From the NCBI RefSeq assembly GCF_041146345.1, contig NW_027191405.1, positions 248,001 through 312,000 of the forward strand: 64,000 nucleotides of DNA, written 5' to 3'. A program made the translations under genes and the position numbers. How positions within the stretch are numbered: the first letter of the stretch is position 1; each line of letters starts with the position of its first letter. Of this stretch, positions 53,426 to 64,000 are shown one piece after another. The notes beneath the pieces were generated by a model that was given only the letters and a program-made list of their open reading frames with translations, ran no database searches and had not been told where the DNA came from. The stretch is from Neodothiora populina. Lineage: Eukaryota.

Positions 53426-55294
53426 TCATTTGCCTACGCAGAACTTCTCGAATACCACGCCAAGAACCTCTTCAGTATCACCAGCATCGCCTCTACCAGT
53501 GATTCGAGCAAGGCAATTGGCGGCAGATCTAAGGCTTTCGGCGGCAAGCACGATATCCACCTCACCATCTTGTAGCTCCAGCACATCGCCATCGCCCTCG
53601 ACTTCCATCAAGAATTGCTGTAGATGTGATTGGCACTCGTCGAGTAACAATCGATGACGCTCCGTCGCGCCAAGTGATTCCTGCCAGATAGAAGGGTCGG
53701 CATCGCTAGAGGAATCTGCGCTGAGTGGTGAAGTCATGGCATGGAATCTAGCGATGAGACCTGAGAGGAAAATATGGATGTTTCCGGCTTGTGGATCAGA
53801 GGATGTTTCTGCGTGCTTGCAGGATATGGCGAAGATCTGATCAGACTGGATTTTGGGAAGAGCAGCTCGGATCTGTGCCTCAATAGCAGCGATATCGAGC
53901 TGTGTATGGTTTAGGAGATCCAGCTTGTTAAGCACAACGATAACATTCCCACCTGCTTTGCAAAGCTCAGTGGCAGTCTCGACAACTTCTGGATCGAGCT
54001 TCAGAAACACATCTCCGTTGTCGACCTCGAGCGAGAGGACGACAATCACGACGTCGCTCTCAGCAGCTCTAGCTTTAGCCCTTCTCATGCCTTCTCTCTC
54101 TATCAAACCAATTGTCTCATGCATGCGTTCACTTGCAGACTTCAGTGCATCAAGGTTTCTCCTGAGGCCAGCAGTGTCACCTAAGCGGCATAAGTATCCT
54201 CCAAGATCTATGCCGACCTCTACAACATCTCTCGTAGTACCAGCTTCTTGGCTGACAATAGCCGCTTCTCTACCGACGACTCTGTTGAGCAAGCTGCTTT
54301 TGCCAGCATTGGGAGCACCGAGGAGGGAGATGCTGATACCATTTCTCAACAGCTCACCTCTCACGGCATTCTTGCTATGGGCATCCAGAAACACCAATAA
54401 CGAGCGTACCTGCACGGAAACGGACGACGTCAGCTCGGCCGGTGACTCGTCGAAGTGTTGGTCTTCCGAAAAGTCTATCAAGGCTTCGAGCTCGCCTCGC
54501 GCGTACAGCAGCTGCTGCCTCCAGCCTTCATATCGTTGCGCGAGTTTGTTGGTCGTAGCACGTACGGAAAGGCGTCGCTGTTGCTCTGTCGATGCGGATA
54601 GCGTGTCGCCTAGTGCTTCGACTTGAGTGAGATCAAGTCGGTCATGCATGAAAGCGCGACGAGTAAACTCGCCAGCTTCAGCGTATCGAATGCTCCCTAT
54701 TGTGGAGGAGCATTTGGGTATCGCAGCCAGTACGGCTTTTACTACAGCGATGCCCCCATGGACATGGAGCTCAAGCACATCCTCGCCAGTGACTGTATGA
54801 GGCGCACGGAAGTAAAGCAGCAATGCACTAGAATCTAATAATGACTCTGGAGATGGACTACAGCCTGGTTCATACAGACCCCTGACAGCTGCACGCCGAG
54901 GCTTTAGTGGCTTAGACCCAGGACAGAAGGCGTGATAGATGGAATCACAAGCGGGACCCGAAACCCGGATGACAGCAATAGCAGCACGACCCGGTGCAGT
55001 GGAAAGAGCATATATCGTCGGGTCCGCTACCGAGAAGACGGGAACTTGCGATGCTACATCGCCATAACATCTTGAGCCCGTGATAGCAGTGAGGTTCCAG
55101 CACGCACTGGTGGCCTGCTTCCCAGCGCCGCGGTACAGAGATGGGAATACGATCCTGCGGACAGGGACCAGGTTACTGTGAGTCACATTACGAATGCTGC
55201 TGTAATTGGGATTGGTGGTGCAGCAAGGGAAGAGTCCGACAAGCGAAGTCGGACGCCTGACAGCAACGAAGCATGACCTCGACGGACTGTTCAT
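53426..55294 (-). CDS. MSS1: Mitochondrial tRNA modification GTPase (MnmE/TrmE)
   Basis: TIYALSTAPGRAAIAVIRVSG, TGEDVLELHVHGG, GEFTRRAF, GAPNAGKSSL, GTTRD, DTAG, NKLD, terminal FCVGK. Confidence 0.95.
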   Translation of the reverse strand: MNSPSRSCFVAVRRPTSLVGLFPCCTTNPNYSSIRNVTHSNLVPVRRIVFPSLYRGAGKQATSACWNLTAITGSRCYGDVASQVPVFSVADPTIYALSTAPGRAAIAVIRVSGPACDSIYHAFCPGSKPLKPRRAAVRGLYEPGCSPSPESLLDSSALLLYFRAPHTVTGEDVLELHVHGGIAVVKAVLAAIPKCSSTIGSIRYAEAGEFTRRAFMHDRLDLTQVEALGDTLSASTEQQRRLSVRATTNKLAQRYEGWRQQLLYARGELEALIDFSEDQHFDESPAELTSSVSVQVRSLLVFLDAHSKNAVRGELLRNGISISLLGAPNAGKSSLLNRVVGREAAIVSQEAGTTRDVVEVGIDLGGYLCRLGDTAGLRRNLDALKSASERMHETIGLIEREGMRRAKARAAESDVVIVVLSLEVDNGDVFLKLDPEVVETATELCKAGGNVIVVLNKLDLLNHTQLDIAAIEAQIRAALPKIQSDQIFAISCKHAETSSDPQAGNIHIFLSGLIARFHAMTSPLSADSSSDADPSIWQESLGATERHRLLLDECQSHLQQFLMEVEGDGDVLELQDGEVDIVLAAESLRSAANCLARITGRGDAGDTEEVLGVVFEKFCVGK

Positions 55295-55654
55295 GAAACC
55301 TAGGTAGGATGGCGGTATCTTGTTGGTTGCATCCGGGACGGCGGAGGCAGAGTGCTGACCAACGTGAAACTCGGGGTTTGAGAAGCTGCAACGAACACTA
55401 AGAGCGGGCCGAGCCGAGAAAGGCCAAGATTTCGAAAGTTGGCGGAGGAAAGAACGAACTTTCCCTCAGAAAAGTTGCCGCTCGCTGATTTGCAGAAGTC
55501 TGCATCAACAAAAATTATTTGTTTGCGCTCGATTTTGCTTATCCACCACGAAAAAGTGTCAGCAAAGTACAGAATCAGCATAATCGGATATTACAATCCT
55601 CCTCTTTGAGCCAACGGAGATTAGACTTTTTTTTCTGCTCAGACGACCGCCGCG

Positions 55655-56734
55655 ATGGCCTCTGATGAAATTGTCTGGAATGTCATCAACAAGCAGTTTT
55701 GCTCCTTCAAACTCAAGTATGTTCTTCTGATCAAGAATGAAATCACATGGACCAGAACATAGAATCTGACAGTCTTAAGGCTACCGACCAAAACCTCAAA
55801 CTTCTGCCGTAATGAACACAACGTGACCGGTCTGTGCAACAGACAGTCTTGTCCTCTTGCAAATTCACGCTATGCCACCGTTCGCGCAGACCCAGGAACT
55901 GGTCGCCTATATCTCTACATCAAGACCGTTGAGCGAGCTCACATGCCCTCCAAGTGGTGGGAGAAGATACGCTTGTCCTCAAACTACACCAAAGCCCTGG
56001 AGCAAATCGATGAGCGTCTGAAGTACTGGCCCAATTTCCTGCAACACAAATGCAAGCAGCGGTTGACGCGCTTAACTCAAGTTCGTGTGCGCATGCAGAG
56101 ACTTGCCAAGGAGGAGGAGAGACTGGGCGAAACGACAGTCGCCAGACTTGCGCCTAAGATCAGGAGAAGGGAACAGACGAGAGAGAGGAAGGCAGAGTCC
56201 GCTGCTAAGATTGAGAGAGCTATCGAGAGAGAGCTTATCGAGCGACTGAGAAGTGGCGCTTATGGTGAACAACCTCTCAACGTGGACGAGAACATCTGGA
56301 AGAAGGTCATGAGAGGACTAGAGAGAGGTGGTGAATTGGAGGCTGACGAGGATCTCGACGAGGGCGAGATGATGAGCGACGACGAAGAGTATGAGAAGGA
56401 ATATGAGCGGGAAGGTGATGAGGAGTTGTCCGACGGCGTCGAATACGTCAGCGGTTCCGACATTGACGAGAGCGACGACGAGGGTATCGAAGACCTCGAG
56501 GACTGGCTCGGCTCCGAAGAAGACGGCAAAGCCACCGATGAACACGAGGATGAAGACGACGAAGACTCCGAGGACGACGATGAGGATGCTGCTGCTCTCA
56601 AGAAGAAGATGGCCGATCTCAAGAGGAAGAGACCACAGGCACCCGCCAAACCGAGAAAAAAGGGAAGCAAAAAGCCCATCGAGATCGAGTACGAGAGGGA
56701 GCCCGCACCCAGAGAGATGGTTCTTGCCAAATAG
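55655..56734 (+). CDS. MAK16: Ribosome biogenesis protein Mak16
   Basis: [60 protein letters not shown], acidic tail, IEIEYE. Intron 55717-55779. Confidence 0.95.
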
Positions 56735-57869
56735 ACGCGCCGTATCATTGGCGTTGGGAACGGTGGGCAATGTATGTGCATGGGAGGAGTACAGGCGTTG
56801 TGGCAGCGGTATATCCAGCGTGTGTTCTTTTGTCGGATTCTTCGCGTATCGAACCAAAAAAAAAGTATTTCATTCGCTGTCGAGGTCCCTCTCTATACAC
56901 TCCAGCAATTCGTTACAATTTACTTGTGTTGCAAGCGGCAGTAGGGTATGCTTTGCTTTCCGATCAGTGAATCTAGTGCACATGCTTCAGGTGACTAAGG
57001 AAGGAGCGAAAGTGGCAGTTGCAGGTAAATCTCTTTTGCCCAAGTACCCCTGAAGTCGAGACAAAATTACAGTACGGTAGCGAGATCAATCGTCTTGATG
57101 GGTGGAAAGGGAAGTAAAGTCAATTCGATGCTAGAGATAACCGCATCACGACATGAAAAAGAAGTATGATTTTGCTAGCAAAATGAGTTGTTTTCTATAT
57201 AGAGGACCAGCCTCTTCTAAAGATAAATCGAAGTGACTAGTCTAATGCAAATTTCGAGAAAAAAAAAGCACGATCTATTGTATAAGGAAAACCAGAGCAG
57301 AGAATGAAACAAGAACAGGACAGAAGAACGCCGAATAAATCCGATATGAAATCAATACAACGAGTAAACCAACGGAACATGTTCGAAAAGCGCGGATAAA
57401 GGCAAAATTGCGTGAGAGTCGAGTAGGCGCCGATAAAGGAGGGAAGAGAAACAATGTGAAGCCGTCGCAATGCATAAACAAGCAGATTCCATCGCTATGC
57501 AAGCCAGAGATAAACCAGTAGGAAAGACAAAGGAGACCGAAAGGAGCGTGGTTGTGAACGAGAAACGCCTGTGTATGCTGAAGGGAATGCGAGAGAAGAT
57601 ATTGAGTTGAAGTGGCGGACCTTCAAGAACGTCTGTAATCGCTGTAGTGCTGAGCGGATGCCGCATAATAGTCGAAGATGCAAAAAGTTGGAGAAGATCG
57701 CTCGAACGCTGCAGGGTAGATGAAAAGATGCTCAATGATGGTAATGATGATAATGATGATGACGATGCAGAAGAGTCTTTCCAACGAAGGAGAGCCAGCC
57801 TGCACAGAGGCAGAGGAAAGGATCAAGGACGATCGAATATCAGGCTGCTGACTGCAAGAAATGCGCAAT

Positions 57870-58040
57870 CTAGTTGTAGCCGCCACGGCCATCGTCGTTG
57901 CCGTTGCCGTTCTTTGCTGATCTGATTCCCATGGTTGATGGGTTTGAGGGACGGCTGATTCCGCTGGACTTGACATCAGAGTGCGATGGGAGGCGGTTGT
58001 AGCCACCACGACCAGACTTGTTGTATCCACCACGGCCCAT
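57870..58040 (-). CDS. Small peptide (56 aa; 62 aa from ATG 58058) with three GRGGYN repeats
   Basis: MGRGGYNKSGRGGYN...DDGRGGYN*; copies differ only at third codon positions. ATCATGG start context, upstream TATATA and pyrimidine-rich leader. Confidence 0.65.
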   Translation of the reverse strand: MGRGGYNKSGRGGYNRLPSHSDVKSSGISRPSNPSTMGIRSAKNGNGNDDGRGGYN

Positions 58041-58259
58041 GATTGCTTGAGACTGCATGTTCGATGCAGACAAAAGTGTGTTTCGAAAAGGTTGAGAAAT
58101 GGTTTTTTATGAAAAAAATGTGAAATGAGAAGAGATGAAACGCAATGGAAGCGTGTGATGCAGATATGCTTCGAAGACTCAGAGAAATGGTACTTGACTG
58201 TGGAAGTTGTTGTGTTGATGGAAATGAAAGTGATACTGGAAGTGCTGGAGGCACCTCCC

Positions 58260-58265
58260 TATATA
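58260..58265 (-). promoter_or_regulatory. Putative TATA element of the GRGGYN peptide gene
   Basis: TATATA on - strand ~220 nt upstream of ATG, followed by a C/T/A-rich leader like those of other genes in the window. Confidence 0.4.
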
Positions 58266-60333
58266 CCACATTTTCCATTATCTTGTGAACTATGCGGCGT
58301 CCCAGTTCGACCGTCTTCGCCAGGCACCCACCGTAGCAGTGCTGGTGTATTGGGTAGGAGGTCTATACTGACGGACTGCAACCCTTCTCGCCTGAACAAG
58401 TGTGCAGAGCCACCTTCGTACCTGCATCAAGAGAAGCCGACGTATATGGTCTTTCAGCCCTGCTCCAAGGGGAATCATGGTGACAAGAGTATGGGAATCG
58501 CGAGAAGTCAAGAAAAGAGATGGTGTCGTGACGGTGCACGAAGATGGGTCAGAGATCTTACTGGTCGATGATGACTGGCCTGAAAAGTAAGCTAATTCTA
58601 AAGATAGTCCCGCATATGTAGACTTAACCTCATTTTATCGGACTTTCTACCCAATTCGGAATCACGTCTTCCTTCTGCTATCAGAAAGTATAGCGGCACG
58701 ATGACTCCGAATCCAAACTGATCTGAGCCACATGAGGAACGTGTTCGGGATATTCAGAGTGTTGATTGTGCTGACGACCAGAGAACTTACGGCCGTACAT
58801 CGCAATCTGTCTTGACACTATTTGTGTTCTTTCCAGCATTTTCTAAACTCAGCAATACCACGGCAGGATACCATCGAACCAGAGTCGTACACTCGTACAT
58901 GCGCGAGAAGTCTTCCTCCGTCTAGCAACACACATGAAGACTGTTAGATCCGCAGTGCGTCCGCCCTTTTCTGAGGCGCTCGACTCACAGCGGATGCTAT
59001 CAACCTTGAGTCGTATATCATTCTCCAAATGGATCATGTAGTCCTAGATGCGCAGCAGATTATCTTAGCCTGTGTCTTCCACAGCAGATGTGAAGTTTCA
59101 GCCTTGGATAAGTGCATCGTTTTAGTTTATTTGGTAAGCATTGGCACAGCGTGTTGGGTCATGCTCAATTGAATTCCACCAGCTGTCTTTCCAGCGAATG
59201 TAGGTCTCGATGAGCTGAGGTTGATATCTGTAAGAGAGTCATTCAATCTCAGCTTTACCACTCGATAGCTCCAAGATTGTAATGTCTCAGTCTCACATGC
59301 GAAAGAGCGCTACGGGATCTGTATCTGTGGTGAACCGCATGAGGGGTAGTCATGTATCGATAAGATGCATCTAAAGAGCTCGGATTTTGTTTTAGCGATA
59401 AATTGTCTATTTTGAATCGCGATAGCAAGGCCACGTCAGATGTACTGTACCCCGAACAACTTGCCCAGTCTGGATAATAGGCGTTGCGCGCAAAAATGTG
59501 TCCCCCACCAGCAATCCCATGCCTATGACGCTGACCCCGTTAGGGTAGGGGTCCTTCCCTGCAGAATGAGTTGTCAGACAAATTGTCTGCAGGGCTGACC
59601 TTTGGAATTGAACATGGCATCGACCAACATACCTGATATGTGTACGCAGACCATTGGTTATGCATCTTTGCTAGACTTCTTGATCAGAAGAGATCATGAG
59701 GAAACGCTATCAACTGTCTTGTATAGCATTCTGGAGCCTCAAGTCCTGACCTCCGCTTGCGATACTAATAGTCACTCCACTTTCCTTAGCTTGGAATGCA
59801 AGCAGATCATCGCAAAACAAGCCTTACCAAAGCACTGGTAATATCTCCTAGGATGTTGGTGATAGATCCATCCAGCCGGGGTCGGAGTACAACGTCAACC
59901 GACCCTGTTTGTATACAGTGCATACGAATTTCCTAATCAAAGTGATGACTGTATTTTTTTTGCCTATGAACCATCCACACCCTAGATCCAAAAAGAGGCA
60001 ATGATGCTGGGCACAAAGAATAGACGAGTATTTGTTGCTATCTGTCTGGATGCCTCGTGTCATCTTTGCACCGAGACATTTTCTGTTACATCATCCTAAG
60101 TATCCATACATTGCTGACGAAATGTTGAATCTTGCTGCTCTCCGCACCTTCTCCTCTTTAATTCTTTGCAGCCCGGAGTAATTAGATTTCGACGAGATTC
60201 GTCTAAGTACAAGGCCGATCTTCAACATGCAGAAGACCTGTTGGAGTATAGCCCGTTGGGTCCCCTCATCTTCACCCCGCAATTATATGAAGTAAGGTAT
60301 GTAACCTAACACGACCCGTCCGACCCGAAACTC

Positions 60334-61220
60334 ATGCTCAACATGTATTCAACTCGAGGAACATCGTTTCACTGGATGATAGCTGCTGCCAATTGCTAGG
60401 CATTCATCCTGCTTGGATATAACCAGGGTGTGATGTCTGGACTTGTTGGGGCACACAGCCGACTCGGTCGAACTATGAATATTATCGATCCCACTGTGCA
60501 AGGATCGCCAACATCCAATGTATGCTATCGGATGTGCTCTAGGCTGTCTTTTCTCGTTCTGTGCGGAAGATTTTTTGGTCGGAAAAAAATGATTTTCGCC
60601 AGGGGTTTGCTCATGTCTTCAGCTTCTGGGCTCTGCCTTTGCTTTGCATCTGTCTCTGCTTTTCTATTAATTGGCACATAAAGCTGAGCATATGCTGCGA
60701 CTGCGTCTGTATTCGTATTCCAGATCTTCCTTGGTATCGGATACTTTCTTATACCATGGTTCTATTCTTGAAAAGGCACAAAAACAAGGATTCGCTCCAA
60801 GGGCCAAGCTTTCGGTGGCTTCATAAATTGGACGTGTATTCTGCGTCGTACAGATCACGCCAATCGGCATCCATAACGTAGGGTGGCATACATTTGTTAT
60901 CTTTGCATGCTTCTGTTTTGCTTGGGTTTCCACGGTGTACTTCTTTTCCCCAGGTGACTAGATCGCTTCTCAAAGCGACTACAGCAGCAGCAACATAGCA
61001 CAAAGAAACAAATGGCCTTGGACTTGAAGGTACTGATCATCTCTTTGAGGAAGGCGGTGTCACAGGCGGAGTACTCCACGCAAACGGCGGACGAACCGTG
61101 CGGCCTGGCCATCATTCTACACAACGAGATGTTGGTGGTCAGGACAAGGGTGGCTCCGATGCACTAGGTATCGAAGACTTGCGCGAGAACGACTCGGACT
61201 TTGTGAGTGCCGTTGCTTAG
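60334..61220 (+). pseudogene. MFS sugar-porter (STL1-like) pseudogene with stops, frameshifts and a large internal deletion
   Basis: AAANC*AFILLGYNQGVMSG (TAG 60397-60399), IGCALGC, GRKKMI, then directly LLMSSASGLCLCF, FQIFLGIG..IPWFY, RIRSKGQAFGGFINW, QITPIGIHNVGW, VYFFSP|ETNGLGLE..DHLF. Relic intron ~60955-61005. Confidence 0.85.
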
Positions 61221-62719
61221 ACCGTGTCCTGATGCTCGATCACACGAGTATCACGTAAAGCCAGTGTTTTGTGGAGTCCTGCTGCTGTGGAGTCCTGGTC
61301 CTGGCATCGGTCTCTCACCAAACGAGGTTGCGTGATGAACCGAAGCGGGTGGTGCTTTCATAATGTACAGTACAGTACAGTACAGTGGGATGATCCTTGA
61401 TCAAGGCTACAGAGTCTTGAGGCATCTTTGCGCATGTTATTCCCGCTCATGATCTCTCCTCGCTTGCAATGATGGAGTACTCTCTGCGGCCAATCGGCTT
61501 CATCCCAAGGTCGTACCCCTGTCAGAAAATCCATGTAACAGCTTCGTTGCACTCAGAGCAGAACGATGCCGTTCGGTCCTTTTCTACATTGACCGTGACC
61601 GGAGTTGGGGTCACAGTGAACCCGTCGGAGCATCCACATGGAAGCAAGGCAAGGGTGCGAGAGCATGACAGATATCTCCGACCAGAGCAAGGTGCACTGT
61701 GGTGGGTCTGCTCGCCGCTTGTTCAAATCCGCTTTCTTGCTACGCCTACTGGGTATGATCCATGTTGATCGTTCGCCGTGATGTCGTCGATGGCTCACGT
61801 TGTGCGCCCAACCCGCCTTCGTTAGCGTGCCAGGCTTGCCGATGTGGGTCTTGCCAAATTTCTCCAGTGGGCCTCCACCTTACCTCCGCCGTGACCTCAT
61901 GTGGGAAAACCTGGAGGATGCATGGAGCCGAAGTTTAGCCAACCCAAGGATCTTGACTGCTTTGAGCATGGGCGTCGGCTTCTATTCGAAGGGCACTTTG
62001 GTGATCGTTACCTCACACGTGCCGGCGTGATCTGACCTCCTCCTCTGGTTGCACTCGGGGAGTCGGCAATGTGCGGACTCTTAATCGTCTTGAGACAAAT
62101 GATTCTAGGGACATTTAGTATCGCCAATCAGACTGGAACGCTGAACGGACTTGAATTGTAGATATTAGCATTTCTCGCTTGCCGCAACGGTACCTGTGGC
62201 ATTACAGTTCCTCTAGCACCATTCATGGTCCTCCATCTCGGCAAGAGCCGTTTTGCGGCAGAGCAACCGTGGTTCGAAAGCATATGACGCGGTGAAAATA
62301 CCGCGATTGCGGTCCTCCGAAAGCGATTATGCGGAAAGTGTTGGACTCGTCTCGATCCTGAGTCAAGGTCATAGCACATAGAGCATGGTATGGTCAGAAG
62401 GTTACTCCGTTAGGCATGGTCCCTGACCATGTGGCCAAGAGGCTCCAGTCAATGCGTCCTGACCTCCGCAATCCCCATGTTGATCGGAGCGTCCCATAGA
62501 TGTTGCAGTGCATACCATATCTCCACTTGCCTCGCAATCCACGTCATGTGTTACGATTGTCGCAGGGAATTCAACGAATTGTGGGTCGAAAGGTGATCGG
62601 CCTCCATGCACGATCGCAGAACTTACGATGTTACAAGCCATTGGTGGTGAGGGTCTTCTGTATAAGAATGCCTTGTCCGCTGGTTCAAGTCAGGTCAATT
62701 TACCTCGGCGGTACACAAA

Positions 62720-64000
62720 ATGCCTTCGATCGTCTCTTCCTTGTTGCTCGCTTCGGCGGGTCTGTCCGTGGCAGGTGCCAACTATACCCGTATCGATGGC
62801 CCTCTGTTCCCAGAGACCGTCTATCCCGGACGTGAAAGTGAGAACCCAGTGACCATTGCTGGTAGCAAGACCAACCAGACTAGTCCTCCCAAGTATCCTA
62901 GTCCTTGGGGCGAAGGCTTGGATGATTGGGCAGATGCTTATGAGAAGGCGAGAGCCTTTGTCAGCCAATTGACTCTGGAAGAAAAGGTCAACCTCACTAC
63001 AGGAACTGGCTGGGAGTTAGACTCATGTGTTGGTCAAACTGGCAGTATCCCTCGTCTTGGTTTCAAGGCTCTCTGTCTCCAAGACAGTCCTACTGGAGGT
63101 GCGTCTCCTAAATGCTATAAGTTGCTTTTTAGTCGCGCAAATCTAACAGTGAACAGTCCGTGATACCGATTTCAACAGTGTCTTCCCTGCAGGTGTGAAC
63201 GCTGCGGCAGCATGGGATCGTGGCCTAGCATACGCTCGTGGAAAGGCCATGGGTGAGGAGCACCGCGACAAGGGTGTCGATATGCAGCTCGGTCCTGTCG
63301 CTGGCCCCCTTGGCCGCGCTCCCACTGGAGGTAGAAATTGGGAAGGATTCTCTCCTGACCCATACCTTACTGGAGAGCTCTTTGCCACCAGTATCAAGGG
63401 TATCCAGTCCAATGGAATCTTGACAAGTGCCAAGCACTTCCTGGCTTACGAGCAAGAGCATTTCCGTCTTGCATACGAGGCTGTGCCTTATGGCTTCAAC
63501 ATCACCGAGTCTGTTTCTGCCAACTTGGACGACATCACTATGCACGAGATGTACTTGTGGCCTTTCGCGAACGGTGTCAAGGCCGGGGCCGCGTCCGTCA
63601 TGTGCTCGTACAACTCGATCAACAATTCTCAGGCTTGCCAGAACAGCTACACTCTTAACTACCTCCTGAAGCAGGAGCTTGGCTTCCAGGGTTTCGTAAT
63701 TTCTGACTGGTATGGTACCCACTCTGGTCGTGAGAGCATGCTTGCAGGTCTTGATATGACCATGCCTGGTGACCCAGAAGGTCAAAACACCAACACAGGT
63801 GCAAGTTACTACGGCTCTAACCTGACCATCGCTGTACTGAACGGTTCAATTCCCCAATGGAGAATCGACGACGCAACCACTAGAATCGTTGCTGCATGGT
63901 ACTACGTTGGCCTTGACAACAAGACTACTGACATCAACTTCAACTCCTGGACCCTCGATACTTACAACTGGGAGCACTGGTTTGTGGGTGGCGGCGCTTG
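62720..64000 (+). CDS. Secreted GH3 beta-glucosidase (BglA/Bgl1-like); 3' end lies outside window
   Basis: Signal peptide; YPSPW, LTLEEKVNLTTGTGW, LCLQDSP, GGRNWEGFSPDP, KHFLAYEQE, SVMCSYN, GFVISDW (nucleophile). Intron 63099-63156. Confidence 0.95.

Follow-up and report, generated by a model that had tools for sequence, protein, structure and literature searches.

A stretch of 64 000 nt from Neodothiora populina, called the window below, carries a micro-gene of 62 codons whose product is built around three copies of the hexapeptide GRGGYN. Comparison with related sequences makes it very probable that the micro-gene is real and protein-coding, and we infer that it is translated in vivo. The product belongs to a family of proteins with 3 to 15 copies of the hexapeptide G-R-[G/D]-G-Y-N and with lineage-specific polar spacers. 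As for function, we favour, with a probability of roughly 40%, the reading that the product would act intact and display a single short linear motif in multivalent form.

THE MICRO-GENE AND ITS PRODUCT

Positions of the micro-gene, of its parts and of the neighbouring genes are given in Table 1. The minus-strand translation has the layout MQSQAIM-GRGGYN-KS-GRGGYN-RLPSHSDVKSSGISRPSNPSTMGIRSAKNGNGNDD-GRGGYN. The first ATG is located six codons upstream of the second one and in frame with it; the product is thus 62 aa long if started at the first ATG (58058; mass ∼6.4 kDa) and 56 aa long if started at the second (58040; 5.8 kDa). It is basic (pI ∼10.6), with 21% glycine and a GRAVY score of −1.22. 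The window peptide has no dibasic sites and no hydrophobic runs of more than three residues (the longest is three).

Table 1. Window positions of the micro-gene, its parts and its neighbours
Feature	Positions	Strand	Description
Micro-gene ORF	57870..58058	−	62 codons and stop codon TAG (57870–57872); first ATG 58056–58058, second, in-frame ATG 58038–58040
GRGGYN copy 1	58020..58037	−	Directly after Met7; GGC CGT GGT GGA TAC AAC
GRGGYN copy 2	57996..58013	−	Followed by Arg; GGT CGT GGT GGC TAC AAC
GRGGYN copy 3	57873..57890	−	Ends at the stop codon; GGC CGT GGC GGC TAC AAC
Spacer, residues 28–48 (DVKSSGISRPSNPS..RSA)	57915..57977	−	Conserved in the Dothideales-type clade only
Putative 5′ leader	58059..58259	−	Pyrimidine/A-rich; ∼8% G in the last 170 nt; no ATG in any frame
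TATA box (TATATA within GGTATATA)	58260..58265	−	207 nt before the first ATG
MAK16 main exon	55823..56734	+	Convergent with the micro-gene; PF01778 (1.6e-28), PF04874 (3.2e-27)
MSS1/TrmE-type GTPase gene	53426..55294	−	PF10396 (1.2e-34), PF12631 (2.4e-30); neighbour conserved in relatives

The three GRGGYN copies of the window differ from each other at third codon positions alone. The first-pass annotation of this DNA had described three copies with synonymous variation only, one right after a Met and one at the stop codon; we confirmed the copies, their coordinates and their codons, with copy 1 following Met7 and copy 3 preceding TAG. The peptide that it quoted begins at the second ATG (58040), though its end coordinate, 58058, is that of the first ATG. 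When all 64 kb were translated in six frames, the pattern GR[GD]GY[ND] was found three times, always inside the micro-gene ORF, which excludes a chance origin of the motif repeats.

The AlphaFold2 model, made with an alignment of 14 sequences, has a mean pLDDT of 54.5 and a pTM of 0.12, and its secondary structure amounts to one helical turn of three residues; the model predicts an intrinsically disordered product.

EVIDENCE FOR A CODING GENE UNDER SELECTION

A word-indexed search among 5.8 billion proteins produced 34 candidate homologues, 22 of them with E ≤ 0.01. These 22 have 56–81% identity to the window protein at a query coverage of 94–100% (97–100% for 21 of the 22). Eleven are ‘hypothetical proteins’ of NCBI originating from Aureobasidium pullulans, A. 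uvarum, A. subglaciale and other Aureobasidium strains. Both Met codons, the three GRGGYN units, the central block and the position of the stop codon are conserved in the alignment of 23 sequences, where columns D28, S35, R36, P37, P40, R46 and S47 are invariant. The expectation of the first-pass annotation that standard annotation would probably miss such a gene was correct in part: the 11 Aureobasidium entries do record a hypothetical protein, but often with a spurious N-terminal extension. The extensions of several database entries cannot be aligned with each other, which suggests that they arose by reading through the leader.

A scan of metagenome contigs yielded 154 pattern matches and seven confirmed loci, two of which were then dropped: L006 was a false positive (a single motif within a long unrelated ORF), and the contig of L007 ends within the ORF. 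We estimated dN/dS by the Nei–Gojobori method for five orthologous loci, the window and L001–L004; dS between the window and the other four is 0.9–1.6. For the whole ORF dN/dS is 0.08–0.31. The comparison of motif with spacer, suggested by the first-pass annotation, gave 0–0.04 for the 18 motif codons and 0.12–0.63 for the spacers. In the motif codons the numbers of variable first, second and third positions are 1, 0 and 11, with no amino acid change; the sole first-position change is a switch between CGN and AGA codons of Arg in copy 3. The other 37 gap-free codons have 14, 10 and 21 variable positions, respectively, and 15 of these codons change the amino acid. Purifying selection on the peptide, as shown by this comparison of sequences, bears out the earlier proposal that selection acts on the peptide and not on a DNA repeat.

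At all six loci (the window and L001–L005) the coding frame is the only one of the six frames free of stop codons. Within 56.7–62.8 kb of the window, blastn similarity to relatives is seen in the micro-gene ORF and nowhere else.

It is most improbable that the ORF does not code for protein and instead arose by chance, represents a DNA or RNA element under conservation, or regulates another cistron as its upstream ORF. Such a reading could appeal to the very short length and low complexity of the ORF, as well as to the glycine codons, which make the RNA G-rich regardless of the third base. What speaks against it is the coding type of the substitutions (11 of the 12 variable motif sites are third positions, and the Arg codon switches between codon families) along with the single frame kept open at six of six loci. 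As to an RNA element, no Rfam family was matched in the 64-kb window, and no tRNA in 50–64 kb. In relatives, the distance from the stop codon to the 3′ end of the convergent MSS1 gene is ∼400–830 bp; this gap leaves no possible downstream cistron, and the upstream ORF is therefore rejected.

We also rejected other gene models. Against a spliced part of a longer gene, no GTRNGY donor-like site exists in the ORF; furthermore, all 22 homologues share the end position, 21 of them ending on GRGGYN and one on GRGGYD. An overlapping ORF of 136 aa in another frame (57623–58033) has no Pfam match and is interrupted by stop codons at four of the five other loci, all but L005.

LEADER, UPSTREAM REGION AND GENE NEIGHBOURHOOD

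At each of the six loci at least 170 nt before the first ATG are free of ATG, with a G content of 6–9%; farther upstream of this leader stretch, ATGs are frequent in L001–L004. A TATA box of the GGTATATA type is present at five of the six loci including the window (at −174 to −181 in L001–L004) and was not found in L005. A search of the six loci for stress and heat-shock promoter elements gave nothing consistent: the AGGGG/CCCCT element occurs once within 600 nt upstream at two loci and is absent from this interval at the other four.

The ∼4.6 kb that separate the micro-gene from GH3 (58300–62650) have no stop-to-stop ORF longer than 115 aa, no Pfam, Rfam or tRNA match and no similarity to relatives. 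The GC content falls to 44–48% at 58–61 kb. An upstream gap of similar size (∼5.4 kb) exists in L004, and the one in L005 extends over at least 3.3 kb. The ∼4.6-kb gap is unusually long for a compact fungal genome and may serve as an extended regulatory region or give rise to a non-coding transcript that has escaped annotation. On the other side of the ORF, an ATC/ATT-rich run (atcatcatcattatcatcattaccatcatt; 57700–57790, minus strand) in what is presumably the 3′ untranslated region has no counterpart in relatives.

Along the direction of the micro-gene, the order of genes in the window is GH3 (a beta-glucosidase gene, PF00933, 1.2e-33, divergent from the micro-gene), ∼4.6 kb, micro-gene, MAK16 (convergent) and MSS1/TrmE. 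The Aureobasidium-like locus L004 has GH3, ∼5.4 kb, micro-gene, MSS1 (convergent) and MAK16. MSS1 is located directly downstream, in convergent orientation, in L002, L003 and L005 also, the last being an Exophiala-like locus of the five-copy form. The divergent MSS1–MAK16 pair (53426–56734) is inverted in comparison with the Aureobasidium-like loci (L004 6672–9897) and the Exophiala-like one; the micro-gene and GH3 have not moved. The arrangement common to the window and its relatives thus indicates a conserved neighbourhood in which the MSS1–MAK16 pair is inverted in the window. The first-pass annotation had pointed to synteny next to MAK16; this linkage holds, but the constant neighbour in relatives is MSS1. 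Locus L005 shows that the three-copy and five-copy forms are positionally orthologous.

Two further observations concern the neighbours. The segment 55643–55720, upstream of the long MAK16 ORF, matches L004 8827–8904 (88% over 26 aa) and is probably the first exon of MAK16, which would then have at least one intron. At 62484–62852 (plus strand), in a frame overlapping the start region of GH3, there is a sub-threshold match to Thaumatin (E = 0.001, 19 bits against a cutoff of 27), which is probably due to chance.

A WIDER FAMILY OF GR[G/D]GYN PROTEINS

The family was defined by at least three GR[G/D]GYN units, the first by the start Met and the last at the C terminus, with polar spacers and no known domain; the window protein has all of these features. 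With a profile built from 14 sequences, a search of 1.84 billion representatives detected 23 proteins with E ≤ 1e-3, including 12 of the Dothideales type. Members outside this type, found with the profile and in two follow-up searches, have only the hexapeptide and the architecture in common. The carriers come from four classes of Ascomycota and from Agaricomycetes; the family spans classes of Pezizomycotina and probably includes Agaricomycetes as well. It is widespread and much broader than the first-pass annotation had seen.

Proteins of Dothideales, including the window protein, represent the three-copy form. A five-copy form (P0035, P0036, P0039, P0041 (Exophiala mesophila, Chaetothyriales) and the ORF of L005) starts with M-A-[I/M]-GRGGYN and ends with GRGGYN; P0029, P0030, P0038, P0040 and P0043 make up a second five-copy type. 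The 10 sequences of these two types have their five copies in a similar spacing pattern, and the spacer of residues 28–48 of the Dothideales type is absent from them. A form with six copies of GRDGYN (P0044) belongs to the lichen fungus Lichina confinis. Longer proteins with 5–15 copies are P0031 (eight copies, Ser/Pro-rich spacers) and those of Hypoxylon sp. FL1284 (505 aa, 15 copies and a basic tail), Suillus tomentosus and Roridomyces roridus. The long forms of basidiomycetes and Hypoxylon could have arisen by common descent or by convergence on a short repeat, two origins that the sequences do not distinguish.

The protein P0032 (125 aa, a metagenome record) represents a putative secreted type. 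It has a signal-peptide-like N terminus, with a run of 14 hydrophobic or small residues, and seven GR[D/H]GYN units, one of which is GRHGYN. KR follows directly after four of the seven units, once as KREAEA. With such a start and the KR and KREAEA sites, P0032 looks like a classical secreted repeat precursor of a near-identical hexapeptide. It is linked to the leaderless GRDGYN form of Lichina with E = 5e-7.

Counts for the family were made on 46 sequences (44 database proteins, the window and L005) and are not counts of independent events, because the cluster representatives are still related. Forty of the 46 end exactly on the motif (26 of 29 of the Dothideales type and 14 of 17 others). Met directly precedes the first strict copy in 26 of the 29 Dothideales-type sequences and is found within 0–2 residues of it in 11 of the 17 others. 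Three strict copies are present in 22 of the 29; five have one altered copy and two (P0026 and P0028) are without the C-terminal copy. P0026 and P0028 diverge before the third motif and have unrelated tails, which may stem from a frameshift, an assembly error or a real loss of the C-terminal copy.

DATABASE AND LITERATURE SEARCHES

No Pfam family matched the 62-aa or the 56-aa product, or eight other members of the family, above the curated cutoff; sub-threshold matches to SelK_SelG (E = 0.06) and Ank_KRIT1 (E = 0.014) were dismissed as noise. Among PDB chain sequences there was no profile match with E ≤ 1, and the best value in the ESM Atlas, 0.80 for an unnamed cluster of Ascomycota, is below the meaningful level. 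Because the sequence does not fit the consensus patterns, we set aside N-myristoylation of Met-Gly, 14-3-3 motifs and C-terminal targeting signals as possibilities.

The GR[G/D]GYN family appears to be undescribed. No fungal microprotein is among the occurrences of the strings GRGGYN, RGGYNR, MGRGGY and GRGGYD in the literature searched, and the string GRDGYN does not occur there. Nothing relevant turned up in searches for publications on glycine-rich or small proteins of Aureobasidium, or on RiPP precursors of fungi that have no signal peptide. The GRGGYN unit is absent from the accessible parts of the supplementary lists of two KEP surveys (PMC7329392 and PMC6339444). Yeast Hrp1 does contain GRGGYNR, in the NLS segment that depends on Kap104 (PMC8140498, table 1); other occurrences of GRGGYN include GRGGYNR strings matching this NLS and one synthetic RGG-Tyr peptide, an artefact of the notation ‘...RGGY-NH2’. 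RGGYNR is found in the RGG box of hnRNP U (table in PMC9957100). A synthetic RGG-Tyr peptide was reported to form a polyproline II helix stabilised by cation–π interactions (bioRxiv 10.1101/2020.07.30.229062).

FUNCTION OF THE PRODUCT

If the product acts as an intact display of its motif, it would work in the cytoplasm or nucleus and present several GRGGYN units, in each of which Arg and Tyr stand three residues apart in a glycine context. A unit would dock on a conserved reader or serve as an Arg-Tyr ‘sticker’, with avidity set by copy number and spacing, and the microprotein would be a small scaffold, competitor or condensate client. As to the identity of any partner, we infer candidates: the reader could be RNA, or one of the readers of RGG-Tyr segments such as the arginine methyltransferase Hmt1 and the importin Kap104.

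Several observations argue for an intact display. Within clades, the number of copies and the distances between them hold steady, and the spacers too are under constraint; the long forms (Hypoxylon, P0031) have the units embedded in larger proteins that do not look secreted. The disorder predicted by AlphaFold2 is consistent with this reading, as are the GRGGYNR of Hrp1, the RGGYNR of hnRNP U and the Arg-Tyr spacing, which matches the arrangement reported for polyproline II segments stabilised by cation–π interactions. On the other hand, the motif varies far less than generic RGG stickers would demand, its spacing is not that of di-RGG, and the lineages with GRDGYN have no RG dipeptide. Unit boundaries that coincide with protein ends are typical of peptide precursors, and here Asn is directly followed by the stop codon in 40 of 46 sequences, while in most of them copy 1 is preceded by a Met at a distance of 0–2 residues. 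In addition, P0032 looks like a secreted Kex2-type form, and P0026 and P0028 have no third copy.

The same placement of units at protein ends would be expected of a leaderless multi-core precursor, from which proteolysis, in the cytosol or following unconventional export, would release active GR[G/D]GYN hexapeptides of a signalling or RiPP-like kind; these might be further modified or cyclised. We consider such a precursor rather unlikely, though it is the main rival of the intact display. It would account for an unchanging hexapeptide next to spacers and copy numbers (3, 5, 6, up to 15) that vary between lineages, for the R or K that follows 54 of 54 internal copies in the Dothideales type, and for P0032 with its near-identical units, its signal-peptide-like start and its KR and KREAEA spacers typical of Kex2/Ste13 processing. 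Yet in the non-Dothideales forms K or R follows only 40 of 83 internal copies, and no consistent cleavage site exists on the N side, where units may follow M, L, D, Q, A, S, P or another residue. The neighbours scanned (MSS1, MAK16, GH3 and ORFs with no Pfam match above the cutoff) include no processing or modifying enzyme. Fixed copy numbers within clades, purifying selection on spacers and the resemblance of the long forms to ordinary intracellular disordered proteins argue in the same direction, and a free GRGGYN or GRDGYN peptide was found neither in the motif literature on fungi nor in the KEP-survey lists, as far as their accessible parts go. It is unlikely, too, that GR[G/D]GYN is a free-standing hexapeptide of Dikarya, possibly modified or cyclised head to tail (Gly at the start, Asn at the end), released from two kinds of precursors; these would be a common leaderless cytosolic micro-precursor, encoded by the micro-gene, and a rarer secreted one processed by Kex2, P0032.

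Quite improbable, in our view, is a non-specific protective microprotein of the hydrophilin type, shielding macromolecules in drying, salt or cold with no sequence-specific partner. A bulk protectant has no need for units whose six residues stay the same across classes and phyla, or for a fixed stop after Asn, and stress-response elements are not enriched (AGGGG/CCCCT within 600 nt at two of six loci, one each). Its attraction lies in the GRAVY score of −1.22, the 21% glycine and the disorder predicted by AlphaFold2. Aureobasidium, Exophiala and the lichen fungus Lichina are stress-tolerant fungi, so that several named carriers would suit a protective role, and strong regulation of the gene would be in keeping with its TATA-type promoter and with a long upstream region free of ORFs.

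The invariance of the unit implies a conserved reader or processing machinery. The family is unusually clean, with one invariant six-residue unit in variable copy number, and its chromosomal position is stable in the lineages with comparable DNA. Since both leaderless and Kex2-type secreted forms of a near-identical unit exist, the question of an intact disordered protein or a released peptide becomes testable. Should the hexapeptide prove real, fungi would have a conserved peptide signal or RiPP that is made by a non-classical route and whose genes belong to no gene cluster. In either case the micro-gene is a small starting point that lends itself to genetic work in Aureobasidium or Exophiala. 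It also illustrates that annotation handles microproteins poorly: the GR[G/D]GYN gene is missed or is given false N-terminal extensions.

COMPARISON WITH KNOWN SYSTEMS

Hydrophilins have more than 6% glycine and high hydrophilicity. The window protein, with 21% glycine and a GRAVY score of −1.22, falls within these bounds, which assigns it to a compositional class and says nothing on mechanism. It is similar to hydrophilins and to small stress-induced disordered proteins of fungi in size, glycine content, hydrophilicity and disorder. Those proteins are defined by composition or by other repeats, whereas the GR[G/D]GYN family has an invariant hexapeptide at both protein ends.

MSDIN precursors of amatoxins and phallotoxins have one core, flanked by prolines, and a conserved leader. 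The likeness to these RiPP precursors consists in a small cytosolic ORF of precursor size with no signal peptide; the family differs by its 3–15 identical units and by the lack of conserved boundary prolines. The neighbours scanned (53.4–64 kb) included no gene for a prolyl oligopeptidase.

A PY-NLS has the C-terminal element R-X(2-5)-P-Y. The 62-aa product contains no PY dipeptide and hence no PY-NLS of the kind used by Kap104/transportin; the Hrp1 example in PMC8140498 ends in PY. With RGG/RG proteins (the RGG/PY-NLS of Hrp1, human hnRNP U) the window protein shares the Gly-Arg-Gly-Gly-Tyr context, disorder and basicity. In contrast to them, it has neither an RNA-binding domain nor the PY dipeptide, the whole six-residue unit including Tyr-Asn is invariant in its family, and it consists of little else and ends on the motif. 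A di-RGG is defined as RGG(X0-4)RGG, and a tri-RGG likewise has gaps of 0–4 (Thandapani et al., as quoted in PMC9957100). The first and second triplets are separated by five residues in the window protein and by 10 in most relatives, and the third is more than 30 residues away. The units of Lichina and P0032 are GRDGYN (one GRHGYN in P0032) and thus have no RG dipeptide. Given these gaps of 5–10 residues and the GRDGYN lineages, the product is not a canonical RGG-box protein. An RGG/Y microprotein and a multi-core precursor, the two alternatives raised by the first-pass annotation, are both still viable descriptions; the strict RGG-box version of the former is weakened by the spacing and by GRDGYN.

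KEPs are recognised by an N-terminal ER signal peptide and by repeats separated by the Kex2 sites KR/RR (PMC7329392). By inspection and composition the window protein has no signal peptide (hydrophobic run of three residues, GRAVY −1.22), and no dibasic site separates its repeats; in agreement with the first-pass annotation, the window form is therefore not a classical Kex2 precursor. A dibasic site somewhere after the first motif is present in 4 of 28 Dothideales-type relatives. P0032, by inspection, has both the signal peptide and the Kex2 sites. In ustiloxin-type (dikaritin) RiPP systems a DUF3328/UstYa gene adjoins the precursor gene (PMC7329392); a DUF3328/UstYa match was absent from the Pfam results for neighbours and ORFs scanned in 53.4–64 kb. 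KEPs such as alpha-factor and the ustiloxin type (PMC7329392 and PMC6339444) resemble the family in having a repeated short peptide, variable spacers, a last copy that ends the ORF and a copy number that varies between lineages. They differ from the window protein and nearly all of its relatives by the ER signal peptide and the dibasic sites between units. Judged by its sequence, the micro-gene may thus be likened to genes of two known kinds, those of short-motif disordered proteins and those of repeat-peptide precursors.
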